Below, in pieces: positions 1 through 38,717 of a stretch of 64,000 nt of DNA. How positions within the stretch are numbered: the stretch's first letter is position 1; each line of letters starts with the position of its first letter. This stretch comes from an archaeon. GTDB taxonomy: Archaea; Iainarchaeota; Iainarchaeia; Iainarchaeales; Iainarchaeaceae. The position numbers were made by a program, and so were the translations under genes. The notes beneath the pieces are model-generated. The model was not told where the DNA came from. It searched no databases and worked only from the letters and a program-made list of their open reading frames with translations. Location of the stretch: positions 16,053-80,052 of the forward strand of contig DATDWP010000021.1 of assembly GCA_035289625.1 (NCBI GenBank), in the 5' to 3' direction.

Positions 1-1659
1 CTTCTAACATTCATCCTTCTTGGAAGATACCTCGAGGCCGTAGCCAAAGGGAAAACATCCGAGGCAATAAAGAGGCTCATAGGCCTTGCGCCAAAAACAG
101 CACTGATAATGCGGGAAGGAAAAGAAACAGAAATCCCGATCAAGCAGGTTGTTGTAGGGGACATAATAATTGTAAAGCCGGGAAACAAGATACCGGTTGA
201 CGGAACCATCGTTAACGGGGTTAGCAGCATTGATGAGTCAATGATAACTGGGGAGAGCATGCCGGTGCACAAAAGAAAAGGGGACACGGTAATTGGAGGA
301 ACAATAAACACTACCGGCTCATTTACTTTCCGCGCGACAAAAATAGGCAAGGACACCATGCTTGCGCAGATAATAAAACTGGTTGAGGAAGCGCAAGGCA
401 GTAAAGCCCCAATACAAAAGCTTGCCGACACCGTTGCCGGCTATTTTGTTCACGCAGTAATTGTGCTCTCCGTGCTCGCATTCCTCTACTGGTTCTTTGT
501 TGCAGGCCAGACATTCATATTCGCACTCACAATACTGGTTTCAGTACTGGTAATATCGTGCCCGTGCGCAATGGGCCTTGCAACCCCCACAGCAGTCATG
601 ATTGGGACAGGAAAAGGCGCAGAGAACGGTGTTCTCATAAAGAATGCCCAAAGCCTTGAGATGCTGCACAAAGTAAAGACCATAGTATTTGACAAGACCG
701 GAACAATAACAAGAGGGCAGGCATCGGTCACGGAAATCTTGCCAACCGCACTTAAAGAACAGGAATTAATCTCGCTAGCAGCATCTGCGGAAAAAAACTC
801 CGAACACCACTTAGCGCAGGCAATTGTAAAAAAAGCCAAGGAAATGAAGGCAAAAATAACCGAACCAAAAACATTCAAGGCAATCCCGGGGCACGGAGTT
901 GAAGCTACTATTGGGACAAAGAAAGTCCTGATAGGCACTCTTGTGCTCATGAAAAAAACCGGAATAAAAATAAGTGACAATAAGATTTTGGAGATGCAAA
1001 AGCTCGAAGAACAGGGAAAAAGCGTCGTCATCGTTGCATTGAACCGAAAATATAGCGGAATGATTGCAATTGCAGACACCATAAAAGAGCACTCACATCA
1101 AGCAATAGAACAACTGCAAAACATGGGCTATGAAACAATAATGATAACAGGCGACAATGAGCGCACCGCGAATGCGATTGCAAAGCAGGTCGGGATTTCA
1201 AAAGTCCTTGCCCACGTACTCCCGCAGGACAAGTCGGAAGAAGTGAAAAAACTCCAGCAAAGCGGCAAGGTAGCATTTGTTGGCGATGGGATAAATGATG
1301 CCCCCGCACTTGCCCAAGCAGATGTCGGCATTGCAATAGGGAGCGGGACAGATGTTGCAATAGAGAGCGGCGGAATAGTGCTGGTGAAAAGCGATCTGCG
1401 CGACATAGTAACCGCAATAAAACTCAGCAAATACACGCTTGACAAAATAAAGCAAAACCTATTCTGGGCGTTTGGGTACAATGCAGTAGGAATACCGATA
1501 GCAATGGGAATCCTCTACCCCTTCACGGGTTTTTTGCTAAGCCCGGTGATAGCTGGGGCCGCAATGGCATTTAGCTCGGTTAGCGTTGTCTCTAATTCTC
1601 TGCTGATGAGAGGGTTCAAACCAAATTCCAAAAATGCCCCAACCGCAAACCTAAAATGA
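1..1659 (+). CDS. copA: Heavy-metal (Cu+) P1B-type ATPase, C-terminal ~550 aa; 5' end lies upstream of the window
   Basis: Frame 1 is open from nt 1 ([26 protein letters not shown]...). It carries the CPC membrane metal site ([12 protein letters not shown]), the DKTGTIT phosphorylation motif and the GDGINDAP hinge motif. Ends with a stop at 1659. Confidence 0.85.
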
Positions 1660-5107: not shown

Positions 5108-7036
5108 TTACCCGCGCTTATAAATCGTAACTTGCGGGTTTTCAAAAACCTTTGCAAGGGAGGGGTCGGAATCGAGGGAATTGTTGCCAATTAGTTTTTC
5201 ATACTCCCCAACCCAAACAAAATCAATCCTTGCCGGAGGGTTTTGCGGGTCTGAATTTTCATATATTGAAATTATCCGCATGGCCGCTTCATGCGAGTAG
5301 AAGAAAATATTCCCCTCTTTTCCGTTTTCCCTAATTTCTTTCTGCACATCCTGCGGCCAGGAGGCAATCTGATCTTCAAACTTCTTTTCTGACCAGACAC
5401 CGGTTGCGTGATAGAGGAAATGGAACGGGAAATTTGCCGCAAGCGCTTTTTCATGCAATAGCAAATCCTGTTCACTTGCAACAGGCCCAGTTACAGAATG
5501 AATGCTAAGAGTATCTTTTTGCGGAGTAAACAGCCAATTGATTGTATCTTTTCTAACTCCAAAAAATTTGTAGGCAAAACCCACACGCTTCTCTATTTCA
5601 CCATTTTTTGCAGAAGTAAGAAAGCCATTTGGGTAGAATACATAAAGCCCGGTATCGGCACTTATCCGAGAATTTGTCTGGGCGCTAAGTGCGAGCACAA
5701 CATCTTCTTTTGAGGAATTTTCCTCAAGCCATTCAAGGGCCTGGCGCTGCTGCGGGGAAATTGTATATGCGGCGCAGCCGCTTTGAGCGCAACGAAGCTC
5801 AGTGTAGTGGAATTGCGTTACTAGCCCTAAGAAAAGTGCGGCAAGAAGCAAAATTGCCCACGCACTATTTTTGATTTGATCTGGAACTGTAATTTTTGGA
5901 AAGGCAACTTTCAGAGAACCGGCTTTCCATAGGGCAAAAAGGGAAACCAAGAAAATTAGCGACATTTGATCGGCAACCTGGTTTTGCCAGTGCAATACTG
6001 CAAGATTCACCCCGAAAACTACCTGCAAATTCATCCCGACAACTGACCCTAAAAGGATGCCGGCAAGCAAAACCCTTTGCATATCCCATTTTTTTATAAG
6101 AAAATATGCCCCCGCTAAAAGGGCAAGGTATTTGAGGGTGGGGACTGTATAATAGGGGCGGCTTACCTCCCCAAAACCTAAGCGAAGAACCAAATCACCG
6201 GAAAGACCTGAAAAAGCATTTAGGGCAAGATTTGCAAGGTATGGAAGGGCCACAATTGCTGCAGTTGCAAAAATAAGAATTGAGTGCAGTGGCAATGATT
6301 TTAGAATATTTCCAGCCCCCGCTTTTTTTGAATTCCATTCATATAAAAGCACAATAAATAGCCCTGCAAAAAATGCAACGTAGTAAAAGTAGACGTAAAC
6401 TAAAAGCCCTGCAAAAAAGCCCGCAACAACCGCATCTTTTGCCTTTTTTGTTTCAAATGACTTTAAGGTAAAATAAATCGCCAGCAAAAAGAACGGAAGT
6501 GTTGCTATCGGGGAATGGAACCTATCTATGAAAAGGTATGTCGAGGACAGAAGTTTTGAAATATTTACCAAAAGTTCTGGTATCCAGGGACTGAAGAGAT
6601 CAAAAATATTCGGAAAGAGGGTAAAGAGCGCGCTTATTGCAATGCGATTGCCATTGCCTTTTACCCACAGGCCAAACAATAACCATGACAGCAAAAAAAT
6701 CGCAACCGCCCCGGCAAATTTCATTATTATTATCCAATAATTGCCGACAAGCGAATATAGTGCCCCTGCAATAAGGAATGGAAGCCACTCACGCGAGGGA
6801 ATGGTTTTGGATAGTTCGAAGACCTGGGGCTCGGTTACCCAACCGTGCAAAGAAACATGCTTTACAATGGCCGAATACATTGTAAAATCAAGAGTGCGTA
6901 TTGTTGGGCTAAAATAGTGGAATGGGTAAAACTGCTCCCCAGCGAGCGCCATCACAAGAACATCCGAGAGAACTATTATCGCTGCAAGTGAAAATGCGCA
7001 AAGCACCAAAATTACTTTCCAGCCCCTACCTTTCAC
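5108..7036 (-). CDS. Polytopic membrane protein (about 12 predicted TM helices) with a ~200-aa C-terminal soluble domain; candidate GT-C-type glycosyltransferase or glycan-processing membrane enzyme
   Basis: 642 aa. Hydrophobic segments run through the first ~430 aa and are followed by a hydrophilic tail. It is the last gene of the minus-strand glyco-operon. The function is inferred from architecture only. Confidence 0.45.
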   Translation of the reverse strand: MKGRGWKVILVLCAFSLAAIIVLSDVLVMALAGEQFYPFHYFSPTIRTLDFTMYSAIVKHVSLHGWVTEPQVFELSKTIPSREWLPFLIAGALYSLVGNYWIIIMKFAGAVAIFLLSWLLFGLWVKGNGNRIAISALFTLFPNIFDLFSPWIPELLVNISKLLSSTYLFIDRFHSPIATLPFFLLAIYFTLKSFETKKAKDAVVAGFFAGLLVYVYFYYVAFFAGLFIVLLYEWNSKKAGAGNILKSLPLHSILIFATAAIVALPYLANLALNAFSGLSGDLVLRLGFGEVSRPYYTVPTLKYLALLAGAYFLIKKWDMQRVLLAGILLGSVVGMNLQVVFGVNLAVLHWQNQVADQMSLIFLVSLFALWKAGSLKVAFPKITVPDQIKNSAWAILLLAALFLGLVTQFHYTELRCAQSGCAAYTISPQQRQALEWLEENSSKEDVVLALSAQTNSRISADTGLYVFYPNGFLTSAKNGEIEKRVGFAYKFFGVRKDTINWLFTPQKDTLSIHSVTGPVASEQDLLLHEKALAANFPFHFLYHATGVWSEKKFEDQIASWPQDVQKEIRENGKEGNIFFYSHEAAMRIISIYENSDPQNPPARIDFVWVGEYEKLIGNNSLDSDPSLAKVFENPQVTIYKRG

Positions 7037-7053
7037 CTAAATTCACCTAATTT

Positions 7054-7710
7054 TCAAACTCCAATATTTTGCAAAATATTTCCCAAAGCCCTCTTATTTG
7101 CGCCAAAAACAAACTTTAAGCCTGATTTTTTTGCGCAGGCCCTATCATCCAAATCCCCCACAAAAACAACATCACCTCTTTTGCACCCAAGCCTTTTCAG
7201 GGCAAGTTTTATTATACGCCCATCCGGTTTTTCCCTTCCGGCCTCTTCTGAAGTTATCACAAAATCAACTAAATGCGCTATTCCTAAAGAAAGGCACTTT
7301 TCGAGCTGTATTTGGGTTGTGAGGTTGGTTACAATCGCAACTTTGAGGCCTGCGCGTTTGCAGCCCGATAGGAATTTTTTCATTTCTTTGGTTATTTTCA
7401 TTTTTGAAAAATAAGCCCTCCAGAATTGCCTTTCCAGACCCAAAGTAAATTTTACATTTGTTCGCCCTTCAAAAATTTCAACTGCCCTTTTAATATACAA
7501 CAGGCGCGAATGAGAAGCTGCCTGGCCTTTTGTATTTGCCTTTATTTGAGATCTTGCGGATTCATAAATTTTTTCCGCCCTCTTTTTCCCGACCCCGTAC
7601 TTTTTTGAAAGGGCAAAAATTACTTTTTTGGAAGCAAAATTATTGCACACGCGATAGCCATACAACGTATCATCAAGATCTAGCAGGATTGCGCGAATCA
7701 TCCGCTCCAC
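7054..7710 (-). CDS. HAD-superfamily hydrolase/phosphatase
   Basis: N-terminal HAD motif I ILLDLDDTLY and C-terminal VGDLDD (motif IV-like). 218 aa. Confidence 0.7.
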   Translation of the reverse strand: MERMIRAILLDLDDTLYGYRVCNNFASKKVIFALSKKYGVGKKRAEKIYESARSQIKANTKGQAASHSRLLYIKRAVEIFEGRTNVKFTLGLERQFWRAYFSKMKITKEMKKFLSGCKRAGLKVAIVTNLTTQIQLEKCLSLGIAHLVDFVITSEEAGREKPDGRIIKLALKRLGCKRGDVVFVGDLDDRACAKKSGLKFVFGANKRALGNILQNIGV

Positions 7711-8300
7711 CTATCTGTTAGCCCTTTCGAACACATTATAGCGTCAATGTGAATTTTATTTTTCTCCAGGTATTTTTTATATTTTTCAATTTTCTGCGGC
7801 TGGCCCCATCTCTCAGGGCTTACCAGGAAAATCTTAAACCCCGCGCGCCTTATTTTTTTATAGGCATTTTTTGTGAGGGGGAGCTTTGTAAAAGTATCAA
7901 CCCAAACCCAATTGACTTTCCCTTTTAACGCAAGCGAATTTTCAAGTGTCTCAAATTCCGAGAAACGCACCGCAATGTTTTTCTCCCCCTTGGCCAAAAG
8001 TTTTAAAATTGCCGGAAAAGTAATGTCCAAGAAAAAATAATCCCTTATCCCGTGCCTTTTAACAATATCAAGGACCTCGTTTTCAATCCCCTCGGTCTTT
8101 ACATTAAGAAGCATAAATTTGTGCTTATAATTTGCACAATAGTCCTCAAATAAATCCCCGTTTTCAAACGGGTCGTGGTGCAGAATTAATTTTTTGCCAT
8201 CGTTGCGTATATCTATTTCAACGCCCAACTCGTGCGGAATTGTAAGCAGCTCCCCTATGGTATTTACCGCATGCACAACCATTATTGGCTTTTTTTCCAT
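7698..8300 (-). CDS. Glycerophosphodiester phosphodiesterase (GDPD)/PI-PLC-like TIM-barrel protein (tentative)
   Basis: VVHAVNTIGEL...GVEIDIRNDGKKLILHHDPF resembles the GDPD H..N.. / E.D.. / HD motif series. 200 aa. The start may be the internal Met at 8282. Confidence 0.4.
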   Translation of the reverse strand: MEKKPIMVVHAVNTIGELLTIPHELGVEIDIRNDGKKLILHHDPFENGDLFEDYCANYKHKFMLLNVKTEGIENEVLDIVKRHGIRDYFFLDITFPAILKLLAKGEKNIAVRFSEFETLENSLALKGKVNWVWVDTFTKLPLTKNAYKKIRRAGFKIFLVSPERWGQPQKIEKYKKYLEKNKIHIDAIMCSKGLTDRWSG

Positions 8301-10531
8301 AAATGCGCCCTCAAGTTTAATGTAAAATCAATTGTCCTTTTAATGAATCGCATCCTTGACCCAAGCCCCAAATTCCAGCTCGATTTTCCGAACTTCCGAG
8401 CGCCAAATGCAACAGGGAAGCGAATTATTTTAAGGCCGGCCTCTTTTGCCTTATAGAGCGCATATAGATCAAAAGAGAAATCATCCGGGCCATCTAAAAT
8501 ATGTGGCAAAAAAGATGAGTGGAAAAGATTTGGCTGCGCATTAATATCCTCCAGCCATCTCCCAAGCACCATGCTGCAAAATACTGACATCCCAAAAGAG
8601 AAAAAAGAATCCGAAAAACCCCTCCCTAACCTTCTCCCTTTGACAAAAACATTTCCCCCTCTTGCTTTTGCGATTTCAAATGCCCTGAAAACATCTTGCG
8701 GATCTGCCTGCAAATCTGCATGTGTCCAGCACAAGAACTTTCCCCCCGCCTTGTCCAGCCCTTTTTTTACCCCATTTCCATACCCAATATTGGAAGCAAC
8801 ATCAACTTTTTTTATAAAATTGTATTTGCTGAAACAAAGCCGTTCGAGCACTTGTGCACTCTTATCGGTCGAACCGTTATTTACAAGTATTAATTCAAAA
8901 TTTCCCTTGTGAAACCGCGAGAATTTTTCCGCAAGCAGCGGCAAATTTTTTTCCTCATTATAGCACGGAATTACAACAGAAAGCCCCACTAGCCCAAAAT
9001 ACTTCTGCCAATACTCATATGTGTTCAGATCATCCGGTGTTCCCAAAACAACATATTTTTCAACTTCAAAAACCTTCACTTTTCCCCCCTTTTCAATTAA
9101 TTCATTTGGCACGGCATCTGCATAAAACTCATTATTTATGCTTCTTCCCTTTACAATCATTTCCTTAGCGCTATCAAAAAAATCCCCGGCTTTTTTGTAA
9201 TAAAATATCCCGCAAACAGCATGGTCTTGGGTTGGATTTTTGGATATTGGGATTTTGCAAAAAACCCATTCAACACCATTCCCTTTTGCCGTCTTTACCC
9301 ACCCATACGCTTCCGGTTTCCTTCTGACCGCAGCATTATTCCTGAATGTCCAAATAATAGAACCAACTCCCTTTTCCTTAACCGCGCTTAGGAGTTTTTT
9401 GCCGCTAAACAGCACTTTATTGTCGCACGCCGCAATAAGAAGCGCGGAATTTTTATCAATAAAATTTTGTGCAAGAAGGCAGGTTGACGCCTGCCCTGTT
9501 GTTGGCTTTTGAGCAACCACTATTTTTGCGCGGGGGAAATATTTTTTGATTTCTGAATCTACTGAAAATTTTTCCACATGCTCTTTTGAGCAGACAAAAA
9601 CATGCTCATCACATTGCGGCAACGATTCTAGCGCATGAACAAACATGGGTTTTCCAAAAATATCTATAAGCGGCTTTGCCTCTTTATATCCGGCATCGGC
9701 AAATCTCTTTCCGGCCCCTGCCATTGGAATCAGAAGAGTTGTTTTGGGCGGCATTTTTACAAGATTTGTTTTTTTGCTTTGCGCAAAATATTCCGACCAA
9801 TAAATGTACTCCTCAAGATCTGACGGTGTGCCCCACTGCAGAAAATGCCTGACATCATAAACAAAAATACGCTTTCTGTCCCGCAGCAAGAGCCCATAAA
9901 CCGAACTCACATAATACTCACCGTTAACAGAAAGCCCGCTTTCCATAAGTCCTGAAAAATATTTTTTCAAAAGGGCGCCTGATGAAAAGAAATATGTGCC
10001 CGCTGAATGGTAGGATTTTGTCAAATCCTGCGTAAATGAGTGCTTTTCACGAATTTCGAGCAACTGCTTATTCGCATCAACCCTCATTCCCGCATACTTG
10101 TTTGGCCAGGTTAGATGCGGATGAAATGAACTATATCCGGTAATGCCACCGTCCCATTTGCCTGAAATGGCCTTTTTTACAAACGCCGCATAATCCCATG
10201 TCGCAAAAAAATCGCAATAATTCACGAGTACCGGCTCGTCATCTTTTATATGCAAGGCCGCCTGCATAACCGCATACACCGGCCCGAATTTGTGCTTTTC
10301 AATCCCTACTATTTTCCCGCGGGGGGACGATGCCAAGAGCACTTTTTTTAGCGGGGTTTTTTCCAAATGCTCTTTATTGCATATGAAAATGAAATCCTCC
10401 TCTTTTGGGAACATCCCGATTACATGCTCAATGATCGGCTTTCCGTCAACCTCAATGAGGGGCTTTATTTCCCTATACCCCCCATCCCTGAACCTTTTCC
10501 CTTCCCCCGACATTGGAATTACGATCTGCAT
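8282..10531 (-). CDS. Fusion protein: two sugar-phosphate nucleotidyltransferase-like domains plus a C-terminal family-2 glycosyltransferase
   Basis: NT-domain 1 IVIPMSGEGKRF, NT-domain 2 LLIPMAGAGKRFADAGYKEAKPL, then GT2 LSVVIPCYNEEKNLPLLAEKF...ELILVNNGSTDKS. 749 aa. Confidence 0.65.
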   Translation of the reverse strand: MQIVIPMSGEGKRFRDGGYREIKPLIEVDGKPIIEHVIGMFPKEEDFIFICNKEHLEKTPLKKVLLASSPRGKIVGIEKHKFGPVYAVMQAALHIKDDEPVLVNYCDFFATWDYAAFVKKAISGKWDGGITGYSSFHPHLTWPNKYAGMRVDANKQLLEIREKHSFTQDLTKSYHSAGTYFFSSGALLKKYFSGLMESGLSVNGEYYVSSVYGLLLRDRKRIFVYDVRHFLQWGTPSDLEEYIYWSEYFAQSKKTNLVKMPPKTTLLIPMAGAGKRFADAGYKEAKPLIDIFGKPMFVHALESLPQCDEHVFVCSKEHVEKFSVDSEIKKYFPRAKIVVAQKPTTGQASTCLLAQNFIDKNSALLIAACDNKVLFSGKKLLSAVKEKGVGSIIWTFRNNAAVRRKPEAYGWVKTAKGNGVEWVFCKIPISKNPTQDHAVCGIFYYKKAGDFFDSAKEMIVKGRSINNEFYADAVPNELIEKGGKVKVFEVEKYVVLGTPDDLNTYEYWQKYFGLVGLSVVIPCYNEEKNLPLLAEKFSRFHKGNFELILVNNGSTDKSAQVLERLCFSKYNFIKKVDVASNIGYGNGVKKGLDKAGGKFLCWTHADLQADPQDVFRAFEIAKARGGNVFVKGRRLGRGFSDSFFSFGMSVFCSMVLGRWLEDINAQPNLFHSSFLPHILDGPDDFSFDLYALYKAKEAGLKIIRFPVAFGARKFGKSSWNLGLGSRMRFIKRTIDFTLNLRAHLWKKSQ

Positions 10532-10533
10532 CC

Positions 10534-11490
10534 CTAAACCCCTTTTCTAAAGCTTTCAGATTCCATGCCCCTTAATTCGTTTACATTGTTTTTTGTCAAA
10601 AACTTTGGCCTGCCGTACTGCTCGATATTTAGAAGAACGCATAAATGCGCCAGGAAAACTTCAAGGACTTTGTTTCTTTTTTCCCCTGATTTTTCCAGTA
10701 TTTTAATTTTTGAGTCATTTACAATTTCTATATTCTGATTTTCCCCCGAAAAATTGCAATACACTGCGCAATCCGGGAACATATAGTCGGAAAAACCGTT
10801 TTTTAGATTCGCCAGCCCCTCAATAAAATAAATTCCGCCTGTCTTGCCCTCAACTTTCAAATTCTGCGGCAAGTAGAGAGCCACTCCTCTTGATTGCAGG
10901 TATCGCCCTGCAATTCCATCAAGTTCAATGGTTTTTTGGACAGATTCACCCATTTTATTGCACGAAACTATCAGGCCATGATTTTCAAGAATAAAAACGC
11001 CGCTCTTTCTTTTCCGCTCTTTTTCAAAAACAGCCACCGAGAGTTCAACCCCTGGAGTTTTGTATCCAACCCATTCAAAATCCGCATTTCCTAATGCATC
11101 TTTTGCAATATTTTGTGAATTTTGCGCGCAGCTAACGGAATTTATCAAAACAGAATGCGTATGCACAACAGAATTCCCCAGAACGGAATGGAACCCGGTT
11201 TCCATTGAAGCCACCTCATTCCCCTTTGTGCTTTTGCCAATAATTTCCGTGTAATTTTTTTCATTTGCAATGGAACTGTTTTCTGAAGCGCTTTTTAGAA
11301 ATGCACTGACTTTATTAAAATCCACATCTGCAATTCCCCCCTTCTCTGAAACATCTGCAAGGGTTATCCCTGACGCTTTAATGAGCATCCTGGATTTGTC
11401 TTTTATGGAAATATTTCCCCCGCCGGCCTGGACAAGATCTGGCCTTGAGCCGATTTTGCCGCAAGCATCCACTAGCTCTTTAGTTTGCAT
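10534..11490 (-). CDS. Class II aldolase/adducin-family protein (fuculose-1-P aldolase / ribulose-5-P 4-epimerase-like) with a ~100-aa C-terminal extension
   Basis: GGGNISIK, a metal-ligand His cluster (GFHS...VVHTHS) and ILENHGLIV. 318 aa. Confidence 0.6.
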   Translation of the reverse strand: MQTKELVDACGKIGSRPDLVQAGGGNISIKDKSRMLIKASGITLADVSEKGGIADVDFNKVSAFLKSASENSSIANEKNYTEIIGKSTKGNEVASMETGFHSVLGNSVVHTHSVLINSVSCAQNSQNIAKDALGNADFEWVGYKTPGVELSVAVFEKERKRKSGVFILENHGLIVSCNKMGESVQKTIELDGIAGRYLQSRGVALYLPQNLKVEGKTGGIYFIEGLANLKNGFSDYMFPDCAVYCNFSGENQNIEIVNDSKIKILEKSGEKRNKVLEVFLAHLCVLLNIEQYGRPKFLTKNNVNELRGMESESFRKGV

Positions 11491-13957
11491 TCTCTTCCCC
11501 TTTCCTTGCCTTCAGGCTCTCTGAAATCACCCAAAGGATCACTAATTGCACTGCCCCGTCAAGATCCTTTCTCCATACAACAGACCTGTTTTCAAGCACC
11601 TCTTCAAGGTTGGGAACAAGCAAATACGCAATTTCTGCCGCCTGCTCACTAGCCATCTTTCCGCTAAGCGTAATGTTTATAGTCCTCAGATCGCTATTGT
11701 AGTCCATGCCGGCGTTCATTTCTGTGCGCACATTCAGCGCCTCGACAAGTGCAGAGACATCAAATTTATTGTCAAGTGACAAAACAAGCATGAGACCATT
11801 CCCTTTTGGAATATAGCTCACTACGATATCTGCAAATCTCTTTTGAGGAGCAAGGAATGCTTTTGCGTCTTTCCCCCTCTTTTTCATGGACGCAATTACA
11901 TTTGAGGCCGAATATCCCCTCTCGGTTACATCGCGCTGTATTTTCCAGCTCTTTCTAAGGGATGGATGGGGATCCATGAATATCTTAATATCAAGCAGTT
12001 GCCTCATTTTTGTCAGATAAAATGAATGAAGGCCTGAGGCTATTATGAATTTTTTTGGCCAGACATATTTTTCCTTTGTAAATTTTCCCGTTGAATGGTC
12101 ATATTCACGGCGCATCAGCTTTTTTGAACCCTCAAGCGCCTCTATGGATTCGATGTCTTTGTGGAGAAAATTCCCGACCGGATTTAGATGGGTCAGGGTT
12201 TGCCAGTTTTTACTGCCCCTTTCCCATTTGTGCAAATCGTCCCCTTCCAGGAAAGTGATGTTATCTTGCCCAACAAGATCTGCAATAATAGAATTAGTGT
12301 AGCTCTTGCCGCTGCCAGAATCCCCGGATATTCCAATCGCCACCATGGATTTTTTATAGCGCAAATTTGCAATTATCCCGAATTTATACACAAAGTAAAT
12401 ATTTACAATCATAATTCCAATTAGAAGTGTCAGCGCAAAATTTGAGATGAACTGCGCATTAAGGCCAAATGCCTCAAAGATCGAGTACAGGTTTGGGAGG
12501 GTTGAAAACCCGCTAAACAAGGGCTGCAAAGAACCAGGCAGGTCCGCATCTTTACCCAAAAATAGGAAATAGAGCAAAAATAGGGCATTTATGCCCCAAT
12601 AAATCTTTTTTGAAATATTGTCATCCTTTACAAAAAAGTATGCAAGGAAAGGAATTACCCAAAAAAACCACCCTGGCCTTGCAGGAACCAATGTTATAAG
12701 TATTGTAAACACACCCGCAAATGCCATCATAAGCGCGTCTTGGTTAATATTTCTAAAATATGCAAGGCGCAGGAAAAAGAGGAACAAAACAAGGGGCACA
12801 ACAAAAATCACAAGGCCTGTTTGCCCAAATGGTATTTGCAGCAAGAATGCCAGCCACTGTTCTTCCGCGCCCAAAACAAGCTTTTGGTACCCTTGGGAAA
12901 AAATGAACGGCAGGATCAAAACCGCATATGCCCCTATTGCTACTGCAAAGTAGCTGATTGTTTTGCCTGCCAATTCCCTATTGCGCCATAAATACAGGAA
13001 AATGAAAGGGGCCGCAACAAAAATATTTGCCTTCGCGCTAAGAGCAATGCCCAGAACAAGTGCAGACGGGAGATATTTTTTATTTAGGAGCAGGTATACT
13101 GAAAGCAGGAGGAGGAAAATTGGGATCGCGTCCAACTGGCCGTGAAAATAACTTATATATAGTATTATTGGAGAGCACCAATAATACAGAAGAACAAGAT
13201 GCTCCTTTGTTTTTAGCAGTTTGATGAGGATATAGAATATCCCAATATCGGCAAGAAGCAGCGGGGCTTTTGCAAAAAAGAGCTGCAAAAAGCCATTTGA
13301 AAATATCGAAGGCGGAAGAAATGAGAAAAGAAAAGCCGGAAATGATACGGCAAGCAGCATTGTTGTTGAGTACGGAAAAGCCTTGAGTTCGCCCAGTTCA
13401 AAAAAGTGCTGGTAGGGGTTGGAAAAACCGGAAGAGACAAAGTAGTCAATGAATGGGATTGTCCCTTTCAAAATAAAATCCGAGCCGAAGAGAAATGAAA
13501 AAATTATTTTGACCAAAAGCACGGCGATAAAGAGGCGGCTGTGAAAAACTGGCGGCAAACTGATCTTGCGGAAGACCAAAAACTTTGAACCCAAAAAATT
13601 TGTCACGGTGGTTATTGCAATGGCCATGGCGTTTGCGGCAACTGCAACTATTCCAAAAGATTCCACAAGCATTTTTAGAAGGCTGAGGCCAAAAAAAAGC
13701 GAGAAAGTGTAAACCAGGAAATACTTTACAAGCTCTGCAAACTTTTCACCATTTGAGCCAAAAGTAAATTTTTTGTTCAGGCTAAAACCAAAAAGAACCC
13801 CCGCAAAGTAACCAACAGAGGCTGAGAGCAAATAATCAAGACCTGCAAAGTAAAGAAGAAGTATAAAAAGCGAGTAATTCAATATGGTTGAACCTAGGCC
13901 AACAACCGCAAACCGGAGGAACTCTGAACTCACCCCGCCAGACATAAAAAAAACCAA
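11480..13957 (-). CDS. Three-part fusion: N-terminal GtrA-like segment, polytopic membrane domain (GT-C/DUF2029-like), C-terminal P-loop nucleoside/sugar kinase domain (uridine kinase / phosphoribulokinase family)
   Basis: The N-terminus LRFAVVGLGSTILNYSLFILLLYFAGLDYLLSASVGYFAGVLFGFSLNKKFTFGS is GtrA-like. About 10 further TM segments follow. The C-terminus has a Walker A GISGDSGSGKS and a kinase-like core. 825 aa. Confidence 0.55.
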   Translation of the reverse strand: MVFFMSGGVSSEFLRFAVVGLGSTILNYSLFILLLYFAGLDYLLSASVGYFAGVLFGFSLNKKFTFGSNGEKFAELVKYFLVYTFSLFFGLSLLKMLVESFGIVAVAANAMAIAITTVTNFLGSKFLVFRKISLPPVFHSRLFIAVLLVKIIFSFLFGSDFILKGTIPFIDYFVSSGFSNPYQHFFELGELKAFPYSTTMLLAVSFPAFLFSFLPPSIFSNGFLQLFFAKAPLLLADIGIFYILIKLLKTKEHLVLLYYWCSPIILYISYFHGQLDAIPIFLLLLSVYLLLNKKYLPSALVLGIALSAKANIFVAAPFIFLYLWRNRELAGKTISYFAVAIGAYAVLILPFIFSQGYQKLVLGAEEQWLAFLLQIPFGQTGLVIFVVPLVLFLFFLRLAYFRNINQDALMMAFAGVFTILITLVPARPGWFFWVIPFLAYFFVKDDNISKKIYWGINALFLLYFLFLGKDADLPGSLQPLFSGFSTLPNLYSIFEAFGLNAQFISNFALTLLIGIMIVNIYFVYKFGIIANLRYKKSMVAIGISGDSGSGKSYTNSIIADLVGQDNITFLEGDDLHKWERGSKNWQTLTHLNPVGNFLHKDIESIEALEGSKKLMRREYDHSTGKFTKEKYVWPKKFIIASGLHSFYLTKMRQLLDIKIFMDPHPSLRKSWKIQRDVTERGYSASNVIASMKKRGKDAKAFLAPQKRFADIVVSYIPKGNGLMLVLSLDNKFDVSALVEALNVRTEMNAGMDYNSDLRTINITLSGKMASEQAAEIAYLLVPNLEEVLENRSVVWRKDLDGAVQLVILWVISESLKARKGEENAN

Positions 13958-38614: not shown

Positions 38615-38623
38615 TAATAAAAG

Positions 38624-38717
38624 TGGGAGAGCCCAGATTTGAACTGGGGTCGACACCAAATTGGAAGCGTTTACCTCTCCCCAAGGTGCCATACTAACCA
38701 AGCTATACTACTCCCCC
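38624..38717 (-). tRNA. Intron-containing tRNA, anticodon most likely UGG (Pro); ~20-nt intron 3' of the anticodon loop; no encoded CCA
   Basis: Reverse complement reads GGGGGAG-TA-GTAT...GGCAC-CTTGGG-[intron]-GTGTC-GA-CCCAG-TTCAAAT-CTGGG-CTCTCCC-A. Acceptor stem 7/7 (one G-U), canonical T-arm, 94 nt. T-rich tract follows on the minus strand. Confidence 0.6.

Follow-up and report, generated by a model that had tools for sequence, protein, structure and literature searches.

The 64,000-bp window analyzed here (contig DATDWP010000021.1 of assembly GCA_035289625.1, positions 16,053 to 80,052), from an archaeon of the Iainarchaeaceae, carries a gene for a 749-amino-acid (aa) protein in which two nucleotidyltransferase (NT) domains precede a family 2 glycosyltransferase (GT2) domain, and we propose, with modest confidence, that it is the core of a widespread glycosylation cassette. 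The gene occupies 8282..10531 on the minus strand as an uninterrupted open reading frame with an ATG start; a plus-strand reading of the same coordinates is ruled out, as that translation is riddled with stops. The preliminary description of this DNA was correct in its coordinates and domain order, the reading frame being that of the minus strand. The motifs IPMSGEGKRF and IPMAGAGKRF lie at residues 5-14 and 268-277, and VIPCYNEE...LVNNGSTDKS begins at residue 519. Pfam finds NTP_transferase (PF00483) in two stretches (E=4e-21, 76.2 bits against a cut-off of 21.2) and Glycos_transf_2 (PF00535) at residues 518-629 (E=2.9e-19). An AlphaFold2 model built with 120 homologues is confident (pLDDT 93.6, pTM 0.82) and has three alpha/beta domains; neither NT shows an unrelated fold, both being of the RmlA/GlmU type. 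The protein is predicted to be soluble, with no hydrophobic segment anywhere in it (maximum 19-residue Kyte-Doolittle mean of 1.27). The identical protein is present on contigs of independent ENA, JGI, and NCBI assemblies, and the fusion is therefore not an assembly artefact.

The first NT domain (NT1; aa 1-256, 9764..10531, minus strand) and the second (NT2; aa 262-512, 8996..9748, minus strand) are clear paralogues, with 27% identity over 248 residues (E=3e-36). The preliminary description had called for an alignment to check the catalytic Lys and Arg of each copy, and alignment of NT1 to GlmU and of NT2 to RmlA and the Vibrio cholerae protein 4evw finds them kept in both. Mapped on GlmU and RmlA, the shared elements are the P-loop Arg of the G-x-G-x-R motif (R13 in NT1, R276 in NT2), the downstream Lys (K23, K286), the Mg-binding Asp (D107, D370), the sugar-phosphate Lys/Glu (E162/K163, K426), and the GE(Y/F)Y motif (E205 and Y207, E468 and Y470). 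All of these residues are invariant in archaeal, bacterial, and viral members (401 unique sequences for NT1 and 404 for NT2), as are G272 and G274 of NT2. Each copy also has a private invariant set: H137-P-H139, Y133, and Y146 in NT1, and Q347, Y409, W411, N466, and D472 in NT2, the last being near-invariant (401 of 404). Where RmlA and GlmU have their second metal ligand (D226 and N227), NT1 has an invariant Gln (Q232), and NT2 has no conserved polar residue, with V495 here, Cys in most members, and Gly, Ser, or Val in the others.

Whole-domain sequence and fold matches of both NTs are to GlmU, RmlA, GalU, GMPPB, and 4evw, with the uncharacterized 4evw the closest structure (TMt 0.78) and Foldseek E values reaching down to 6e-16. 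The view that the glycine loops place these domains nearer to IspD, TarI, and LicC than to RmlA does not survive the whole-domain comparison. An IspD/TarI/LicC-type cytidylyltransferase is rejected: PF01128 scores 24.2 bits, below its cut-off of 27, over residues 266-323 only (the first ~60 residues of the domain, with the glycine loop), TIGR00453 scores 29 against 181 bits, and no IspD structure is among the top 50 fold matches, all of which are of the GlmU, RmlA, or GalU type. The cassette NTs thus share with RmlA, GlmU, GalU, and 4evw the fold, the loop and catalytic residues, and the GlmU-like GE(Y/F)Y. They are unlike RmlA, GlmU, and GalU in being two diverged tandem copies that are always retained together, in the invariant HPH and second-site Gln of NT1 and the lack of any conserved counterpart in NT2, and in having no trimeric left-handed beta-helix or other C-terminal domain.

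Clean NT1 and NT2 profiles cut from the alignment halves separate the paralogues well (about 460 versus 190 bits on NT1 domains); earlier iterated hidden Markov models had absorbed both and did not discriminate. Each of the 86 prokaryotic loci, including those with split genes, has exactly one NT1-type domain followed by one NT2-type domain, and so do 133 of 137 viral loci. Given this separation and the presence of one of each type per locus, the sequences indicate that the duplication is ancient, with both copies under catalytic-site selection. By profile score, fold, and catalytic residues NT1 and NT2 classify as sugar-1-phosphate nucleotidyltransferases of the RmlA/GlmU type, and they most likely catalyze different reactions.

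The GT2 domain (aa 516-749; 8285..8986, minus strand) falls in the polyprenyl-phosphate glycosyltransferase class on the basis of PDB and NCBIfam matches. Its best sequence matches in the PDB are GtrB (5ekp, 9e-11), ArnC (9hwj, 4.5e-10), and dolichyl-phosphate mannose synthase (DPMS; 5mlz, 9e-10), and its top glycosyltransferase match in NCBIfam is ArnC (2.2e-13). The motif H-A-D-L-Q has His for the first Asp of the GtrB counterpart D-A-D-L-Q, and the C terminus is modeled as a basic amphipathic helix. The acceptor is probably polyprenyl phosphate, judging from these relatives. Fusion of GT2 to the tandem NT is a minority form and probably arose more than once, since the closest archaeal relatives (55 to 61% identity) encode separate genes and the fused bacterial versions are just 41 to 44% identical to the archaeal fusion. 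The tandem NT is also fused to GT61 in a viral protein (P0501), and an NT-NT-GtrA fusion is found as well (P0032). In Cytophagaceae (L031), NT1, NT2, and GT2 stand alone amid unrelated genes, which identifies this trio as the tightest unit of the system. The suggestion that the protein could make an activated donor and immediately transfer it is thus plausible, the tightest conserved unit being one that is repeatedly fused to transferases.

The NT-NT-GT2 gene is the third of six closely packed or overlapping minus-strand genes running from 13957 to 5108. The first (11480..13957) codes for an 825-aa membrane protein recognized by Pfam, NCBIfam, PDB, and hydropathy comparisons, with a GtrA domain (aa 15-129, 13571-13915; PF04138, 78.9 bits), a polytopic GT-C-like domain (aa ~135-530, 12368-13555; ALG6/8, 21.9 bits), and a cytoplasmic phosphoribulokinase (PRK)-type kinase (aa 535-718, 11804-12355; Pfam PRK, 108.9 bits) followed by a conserved C-terminal extension. 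Its transmembrane (TM) segments are confined to residues up to 529. The kinase matches PRK07429 at 2e-54 and NF005655 at 184.8 bits (cut-off 236), and in the PDB it matches PRKs at about 1e-35 versus about 1e-11 for uridine kinases. It aligns without gaps over 180 residues to cyanobacterial PRKs and retains the catalytic Asp/His dyad and WKIQRD..ERG, as well as the motifs of the ribulose 5-phosphate (Ru5P) region. The kinase assignment also holds for bacterial, plasmid, and viral members. The closest solved relatives of the kinase, 9qko and 9qkn, were recently deposited as 'cyanobacteria-specific phosphoribulokinase' paralogues, one of them labeled a uridine kinase, and we found no paper on either.

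The second gene (10534..11490) codes for a 318-aa class II aldolase-fold metalloenzyme (PF00596, 6.9e-17) in which the Zn site is present by alignment to FucA and 3m4r, with His-x-His (HTH), a third His (ENH), and Glu (SME). Its top NCBIfam match is the aldolase domain of bifunctional aldolase/SDR proteins (5e-19), and it scores 29.6 bits against the ribulose 1-phosphate (Ru1P) aldolase model, for which the cut-off is 300. The fourth gene (7698..8300), the start of which overlaps the NT-NT-GT2 stop by 19 nt, codes for a 200-aa protein, designated UNK200, that has no Pfam or NCBIfam match and no hit in a sequence search of the PDB, so its identity came solely from fold comparison. The AlphaFold model (pLDDT 96.9) is a compact TIM barrel of the glycerophosphodiester phosphodiesterase (GDPD)/phosphatidylinositol-specific phospholipase C (PI-PLC) fold, with GDPDs 3ks5, 7e0v, and 1zcc the best Foldseek matches (TMq 0.70-0.75). 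Residues H10, R11, E28, D30, R32, H42, E115, and E117 are invariant and retain the GDPD H-R/E-x-D/H motif; independently, the NCBI pipeline PGAP names the Escherichia coli and Azospirillum orthologues 'PI-PLC/GDPD family protein'.

The fifth gene (7054..7710) codes for a HAD-IA phosphatase of 218 aa (215 aa by gene callers). Its top model by far is the haloarchaeal ribulose 1,5-bisphosphate (RuBP) 5-phosphatase NF053830 (2.3e-51), which is also the top model for HAD members from archaea, Bacillota, a plasmid, and viruses; at 174.7 bits it misses the equivalog cut-off of 330, and the enzyme is thus a relative, not a demonstrated equivalog, of that phosphatase. The last gene (5108..7036) codes for a 642-aa polytopic membrane protein, by hydropathy, without a significant Pfam match; it has at least eight TM segments in the first ~410 aa followed by a ~230-aa soluble part. 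Homologues of this protein are found only in archaeal loci (L005, L006, L011, and L022). It occupies the slot of DUF6798 proteins in bacterial cassettes, and the hhalign match between them is weak (28 columns, probability 14%). No significant relationship was detected by hhalign among the membrane families MEMa, MEMb, and DUF6798, and for this reason we do not call MEMb a GT-C protein.

The tandem-NT core (~548 aa) is common, with relatives encoded by at least 573 species-representative genomes, and the names given to it and its partner genes are generic ('NTP transferase domain-containing protein', 'uridine kinase', 'hypothetical protein'). The preliminary description held open that this might be a common annotated architecture of known function; it is common, but its annotations do not convey a function. 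The archaeal tandem NT is 45 to 50% identical to those of Bacillota, Bacteroidota, Campylobacterota, Melainabacteria, Omnitrophota, and others. Among the 86 prokaryotic loci, partners within 10 kb of the tandem NT include GT2 (80 loci), the aldolase-fold protein (75), the membrane domain (72), UNK200 (72), PRK (70), HAD (61), and GtrA (43), and the gene order is strongly conserved. Wherever a kinase was detected in these prokaryotic loci it is joined to the membrane domain, and it is never free-standing there. UNK200 adjoins GT2 in nearly all prokaryotic loci; clustering at 50% identity gives 345 clusters for the family (E<1e-30), and it is found fused to GT2, to GT87-PRK, to GT61, to an inositol-monophosphatase-family domain, and to a 2H cyclic-phosphodiesterase-superfamily domain. 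A 199-aa UNK200 homologue with 52% identity is also present in a EukProt transcriptome (P0168), and could be eukaryotic, viral, or contamination.

The cassette is also mobile. All eight of its genes are on a 33-kb E. coli IncR plasmid (NZ_CP145712.1, 6022-14984; L087) beside IS26, and a second E. coli carrier, strain ES3, has it on a plasmid of ~33 kb (NZ_JCAPUP010000005.1). These are the only two carriers among 5,426 complete E. coli genomes, none of which has the cassette on the chromosome. In Azospirillum brasilense, it lies within an O-antigen/exopolysaccharide locus on a plasmid. Cultured carriers are Halobacillus halophilus, Paenibacillus and Virgibacillus species, A. brasilense, the two E. 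coli plasmids, and Bodo saltans virus. A more distant tandem-NT-like family (26 to 30% identity at ~98% query coverage), annotated 'glycosyltransferase family 2 protein | HAD family phosphatase', is present on plasmids of Rhizobium, Sinorhizobium, Pseudomonas, and Acetobacter.

Giant viruses are a further reservoir. Tandem NTs are encoded by 138 IMG/VR contigs and UNK200 by 64, and many of these contigs (L091-L227) are giant-virus metagenome-assembled genomes. Viral contigs keep only the soluble enzymes, with a membrane-free PRK and HAD fused to aldolase; a UNK200-NT1-NT2 fusion is very common, GtrA and the GT-C domain are absent, GT61 is adjacent or fused, and methyltransferases are also paired with the genes. 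The cultured Bodo saltans virus has this soluble half, and its 716-aa protein A0A2H4UUJ1, named 'Glycosyltransferase/phospholipase', is the top BFVD match (E=1e-62); a protein search with the viral family returned environmental sequences only. Because viruses keep the soluble enzymes and swap the transfer half, the system separates, on comparison of these gene sets, into a donor-synthesis module (PRK, HAD, aldolase-fold, UNK200, NT1, and NT2) and an exchangeable transfer module, which is GT2 with GtrA and GT-C in prokaryotes and GT61 in viruses. One viral group (L172-L227) pairs NT1-NT2 and GT61 with a shorter aldolase-fold gene of another subfamily (top model L-ribulose-5-P 4-epimerase); one of its members (L184, 7018-13290) encodes UDP-glucose dehydrogenase and a transketolase split into parts as well, the latter being an independent pointer, from gene content, to pentulose phosphates. 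A link to the xylulofuranose glycan of chloroviruses stays unsupported, with no chlorovirus orthologue among the top 50 BFVD structural matches. Glycans that contain xylulose are known for chloroviruses MT325 and TN603, for Yersinia enterocolitica O:5,27, and for Campylobacter jejuni RM1221.

A variant cassette (L089, 6120-11385) is informative in that PRK, HAD, aldolase, and NT1 are all absent while NT2, GT2, and UNK200 are kept. It has GtrA fused to ribulose-phosphate 3-epimerase and a His-phosphatase/mutase domain, then a 2H-phosphoesterase-UNK200 fusion, an NT2-type NT, and the cassette GT2. With the epimerase and phosphatase/mutase replacing PRK and HAD, pentulose phosphates gain independent support as the starting material. 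By eye only, a Pol-beta-type nucleotidyltransferase motif (GS...DIDVIV) can be recognized within the L089 GtrA fusion. A gene for RNA 3'-phosphate cyclase ~2 kb upstream of the cassette is probably unrelated.

Several known systems bear comparison. GtrA/GtrB/GtrC-type systems include those for O-antigen glucosylation by Shigella and Salmonella phages, CsbB/GtcA/YfhO in Bacillota, and ArnC/ArnT; the Gtr-type systems use the housekeeping donors UDP-Glc and UDP-GlcNAc, and Arn uses UDP-Ara4FN. The cassette resembles these in having a GT2 of the GtrB/ArnC/DPMS class, a GtrA-family protein, and one or more large polytopic GT-C-like proteins, and in being compact and mobile, as the E. coli plasmid copy beside IS26 illustrates. 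It differs in adding six soluble activities (PRK, HAD, aldolase-fold, GDPD-fold, NT1, and NT2), in having a GT2 that is free of TM helices and fused to NTs, and in the fusion of its GT-C-like domain to a kinase. The mycobacterial decaprenyl-phospho-arabinose route proceeds from phosphoribosyl pyrophosphate through decaprenylphosphoryl-5-phosphoribose (DPPR) and decaprenylphosphoryl-ribose (DPR) to decaprenylphosphoryl-arabinose (DPA), the donor for GT-C arabinosyltransferases, and is alike in logic, with a C1-activated pentose phosphate loaded on polyprenyl phosphate, dephosphorylated or epimerized, and used by external GT-C enzymes. The cassette, however, has no UbiA-type phosphoribosyltransferase and no DprE1/E2, and would use nucleotidyl activation and GT2 loading instead.

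Two characterized pathways compare with the soluble enzymes. In the haloarchaeal non-carboxylating pentose bisphosphate pathway, a HAD RuBP 5-phosphatase that is strictly RuBP specific yields Ru1P (Sato et al. 2022, PMC9700705), and the cassette likewise has an RuBP-phosphatase-like HAD adjoining, or in viruses fused to, a class II aldolase fold. The two differ in that cassette RuBP would come from PRK rather than from ribose 1,5-bisphosphate isomerase, in that the cassette context is glycan synthesis and not nucleoside catabolism, in scores that fall under the equivalog cut-offs, and in the aldolase-fold protein being nearer to the aldolase domain of bifunctional aldolase/SDR proteins. Nucleotidylation of a non-anomeric ketose phosphate also has precedent, in the pneumococcal conversion of CDP-xylulose to CDP-arabinitol and in Campylobacter jejuni HS:5, where CDP-6-fructose is converted to CDP-6-glucitol (PMC10918830). 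Those pathways consist of one NT, a reductase, and a phosphotransferase, whereas the cassette has two NTs and a glycosyltransferase and no reductase.

Taken with the conserved linkage and the fusions, these comparisons make it somewhat probable that the 749-aa protein acts in the cytoplasm at the center of a mobile and self-contained glycosylation cassette that joins the three-component logic of Gtr-type systems to its own pathway for an unusual sugar donor. The PRK-type kinase, tethered to the membrane through the GT-C/GtrA protein, would convert Ru5P to RuBP, and the HAD would strip the 5-phosphate to give Ru1P, for a net shift of phosphate from C5 to C1. The aldolase-fold enzyme may then remodel the ketose 1-phosphate, an optional step for which epimerization by retro-aldol/aldol chemistry is a guess. 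NT1, NT2, and the GDPD-fold phosphodiesterase would next produce an NDP-activated glycosyl donor, with the two NTs performing different nucleotidyl transfers, and the fused GT2 would place the sugar on polyprenyl phosphate at the membrane face. GtrA would flip the lipid-linked sugar, and the GT-C-like domain or domains would attach it to a surface polymer or protein. Domain identities, catalytic-residue conservation, linkage, fusions, and the exchange of the transfer half are observed. All substrates and products here, the order of the remodeling and activation steps, and the final acceptor are those we infer; the steps are tied together by the fusions of HAD to aldolase and of UNK200 to NT1-NT2 in giant viruses, of UNK200 to GT2, GT87-PRK, and GT61, and of the tandem NT to GtrA.

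Several observations weigh against this proposal. The GT2 domain has no TM helices by hydropathy, unlike GtrB, ArnC, and DPMS; members of the class without them exist (the eukaryotic DPM1 type), however, and their absence therefore does not exclude polyprenyl-phosphate transfer. The GT-C assignment of the membrane domain in the window is below threshold, ALG6/8 having a 25-bit cut-off, although a homologue (P0362) matches GT87 at 39 bits, over the GT87 cut-off of 25 bits; the fusion of UNK200 with GT87-PRK gives an above-threshold GT-C assignment for this domain. Scores against the PRK, RuBP-phosphatase, and Ru1P-aldolase models are all under the NCBIfam equivalog cut-offs, and the cassette substrates may thus differ from those of the models. 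Some loci that otherwise look complete lack HAD and the aldolase-fold gene, and the viral group L172-L227 has no PRK, HAD, or UNK200 within 10 kb. Gaps in HAD, aldolase, UNK200, and PRK, together with the lone Cytophagaceae trio, indicate that the precursor branch is not obligatory in cis, and with the HAD, aldolase-fold, and UNK200 genes each missing somewhere, no pathway model is secure. The phosphate of Ru1P, moreover, is non-anomeric, and the simple NT product would be unusable as a GT2 donor, so that extra chemistry must be assumed, either relocation of the phosphate by a cyclic-phosphate route or a non-glycosidic NDP-ketose transferred as a phospho-sugar.

The second of these ways round leads to the alternative that survives best, though we consider it unlikely as a whole: the cassette would make two donors for two transfer enzymes. 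One NT would supply an ordinary NDP-hexose that GT2 loads on polyprenyl phosphate; the other would make a non-glycosidic NDP-alcohol (compare CDP-ribitol, CDP-xylulose, and CDP-6-fructose) from the ketose 1-phosphate of PRK, HAD, and aldolase, and UNK200 would transfer the phospho-sugar by transesterification to give a phosphodiester-linked decoration. This is close to the 'two different activated donors' of the preliminary description. The private invariant residues of NT1 and NT2 imply different substrates, the non-anomeric phosphate of Ru1P suits NDP-alcohol chemistry, and UNK200 lies beside GT2 nearly everywhere in prokaryotes and in some proteins is fused to GT2 or GT61, as co-operating transferases might be; the L089 variant, too, loses NT1 along with PRK, HAD, and aldolase while NT2, GT2, and UNK200 remain. 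The known NDP-alcohol phosphotransferases, however, are LicD, TagF-like enzymes, CDP-alcohol phosphatidyltransferases, and Stealth proteins, and to our knowledge none has a GDPD fold. Both NTs resemble sugar-1-phosphate NTs and not the alcohol-phosphate NTs IspD and TarI, the prevalent fusion of UNK200 to NTs in viruses better suits a biosynthetic than a transfer step, and a generic NDP-hexose NT would be unlikely to co-occur without exception with a second NT.

The cyclic-phosphate way round can be elaborated into an undescribed pathway to a ketopentofuranosyl (ribulo- or xylulofuranosyl) donor, which is speculative and which we regard as quite doubtful. PRK and HAD would shift the Ru5P phosphate to C1, freeing O5 for furanose closure. 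NT1 would nucleotidylate the 1-phosphate, and UNK200 would form a 1,2-cyclic phosphate through the anomeric 2-OH and open it to the 2-phosphate, in chemistry resembling that of PI-PLC and RNA 3'-phosphate cyclase. NT2 would then generate a true NDP-ketofuranose for transfer by GT2 in prokaryotes or GT61 in giant viruses. Such a route would account for the joint occurrence of a phosphodiesterase with two NTs, and it agrees with the fusion of UNK200 to a 2H cyclic-phosphodiesterase domain and with the UNK200-NT1-NT2 proteins. Counting against it are NT1-NT2 loci without a nearby UNK200 (L031 and L172-L227) and the lack of a chlorovirus orthologue in the Foldseek search of BFVD.

That one NT is instead a non-catalytic regulatory or scaffold paralogue, with a single NDP-sugar being made, is improbable. 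Such pairs are well known, examples being the GMPPA partner of GMPPB and the ADP-glucose pyrophosphorylase large subunit, the GMPPA/GMPPB structure 7d74 is among the fold matches, and NT2 has fewer invariant residues than NT1 and nothing polar conserved at the second metal site. Regulatory paralogues, however, typically lose at least one of the catalytic residues, whereas the P-loop Arg, Lys, Mg-binding Asp, and sugar-phosphate Lys of NT2 are conserved in every one of its 404 unique sequences; with these positions invariant in NT1 as well, the regulatory pseudo-domain envisaged in the preliminary description is unlikely. Finally, the idea that PRK, HAD, and aldolase are a catabolic or salvage route merely neighboring NT-NT-GT2, a PRK-fed non-carboxylating pentose bisphosphate pathway to dihydroxyacetone phosphate and glycolaldehyde, draws on the haloarchaeal operon with exactly such a HAD and FucA-type aldolase and on the similarity of the cassette HAD to its RuBP phosphatase, but is very improbable given that linkage to the tandem NT is kept in dozens of phyla as well as on a plasmid and in giant viruses, that the kinase is covalently joined to a GtrA/GT-C-type membrane protein wherever detected in prokaryotes, that UNK200, itself fused to NTs, is also fused to GT87-PRK, and that the aldolase-fold protein is so weakly similar to Ru1P aldolase.

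In the archaeon itself, recent horizontal import of the operon is rejected, its GC content of 41 to 42.5% being that of the flanks. Elsewhere in the window, a gene for a heavy-metal P-type ATPase is truncated by the window start, leaving its C-terminal portion at 109-1659 (plus strand; 811 aa in full on L005), and the sole tRNA, a tRNA-Pro(GGG) at 38623-38717 (minus strand), has an unusually long predicted length of 95 nt and probably contains an intron, in keeping with an archaeal genome.

No description of the cassette or of the tandem NT was found in full-text searches of open-access papers and bioRxiv. The enzyme folds and the three-component logic of Gtr/Arn-type systems are already known; apparently new, in that the literature found does not describe them, are a donor branch of six enzymes, two distinct NTs as an obligatory pair, a kinase fused to GT-C, and a distribution over the three domains of life and giant viruses. 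There is a substantial chance that the cassette conceals a new nucleotide sugar. If the proposed pathway is correct, this would be a widespread surface-glycan modification with a precursor derived from RuBP, a metabolite otherwise tied to CO2 fixation and archaeal nucleoside salvage. It would constitute a new nucleotide-sugar pathway, provide a function for several large 'hypothetical' families including UNK200, and explain why, oddly, a Calvin-cycle-type kinase is fused throughout prokaryotes with a membrane glycosyltransferase. The ketofuranosyl version, if true, would show how ketopentoses are made, among them the xylulofuranose reported in some viral and bacterial glycans. With carriers spanning many bacterial phyla, DPANN-type archaea, an E. 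coli plasmid, and many giant-virus genomes, the cassette would be a mobile trait that may alter how cells and giant-virus particles are recognized by phages and hosts, or their antigenicity.

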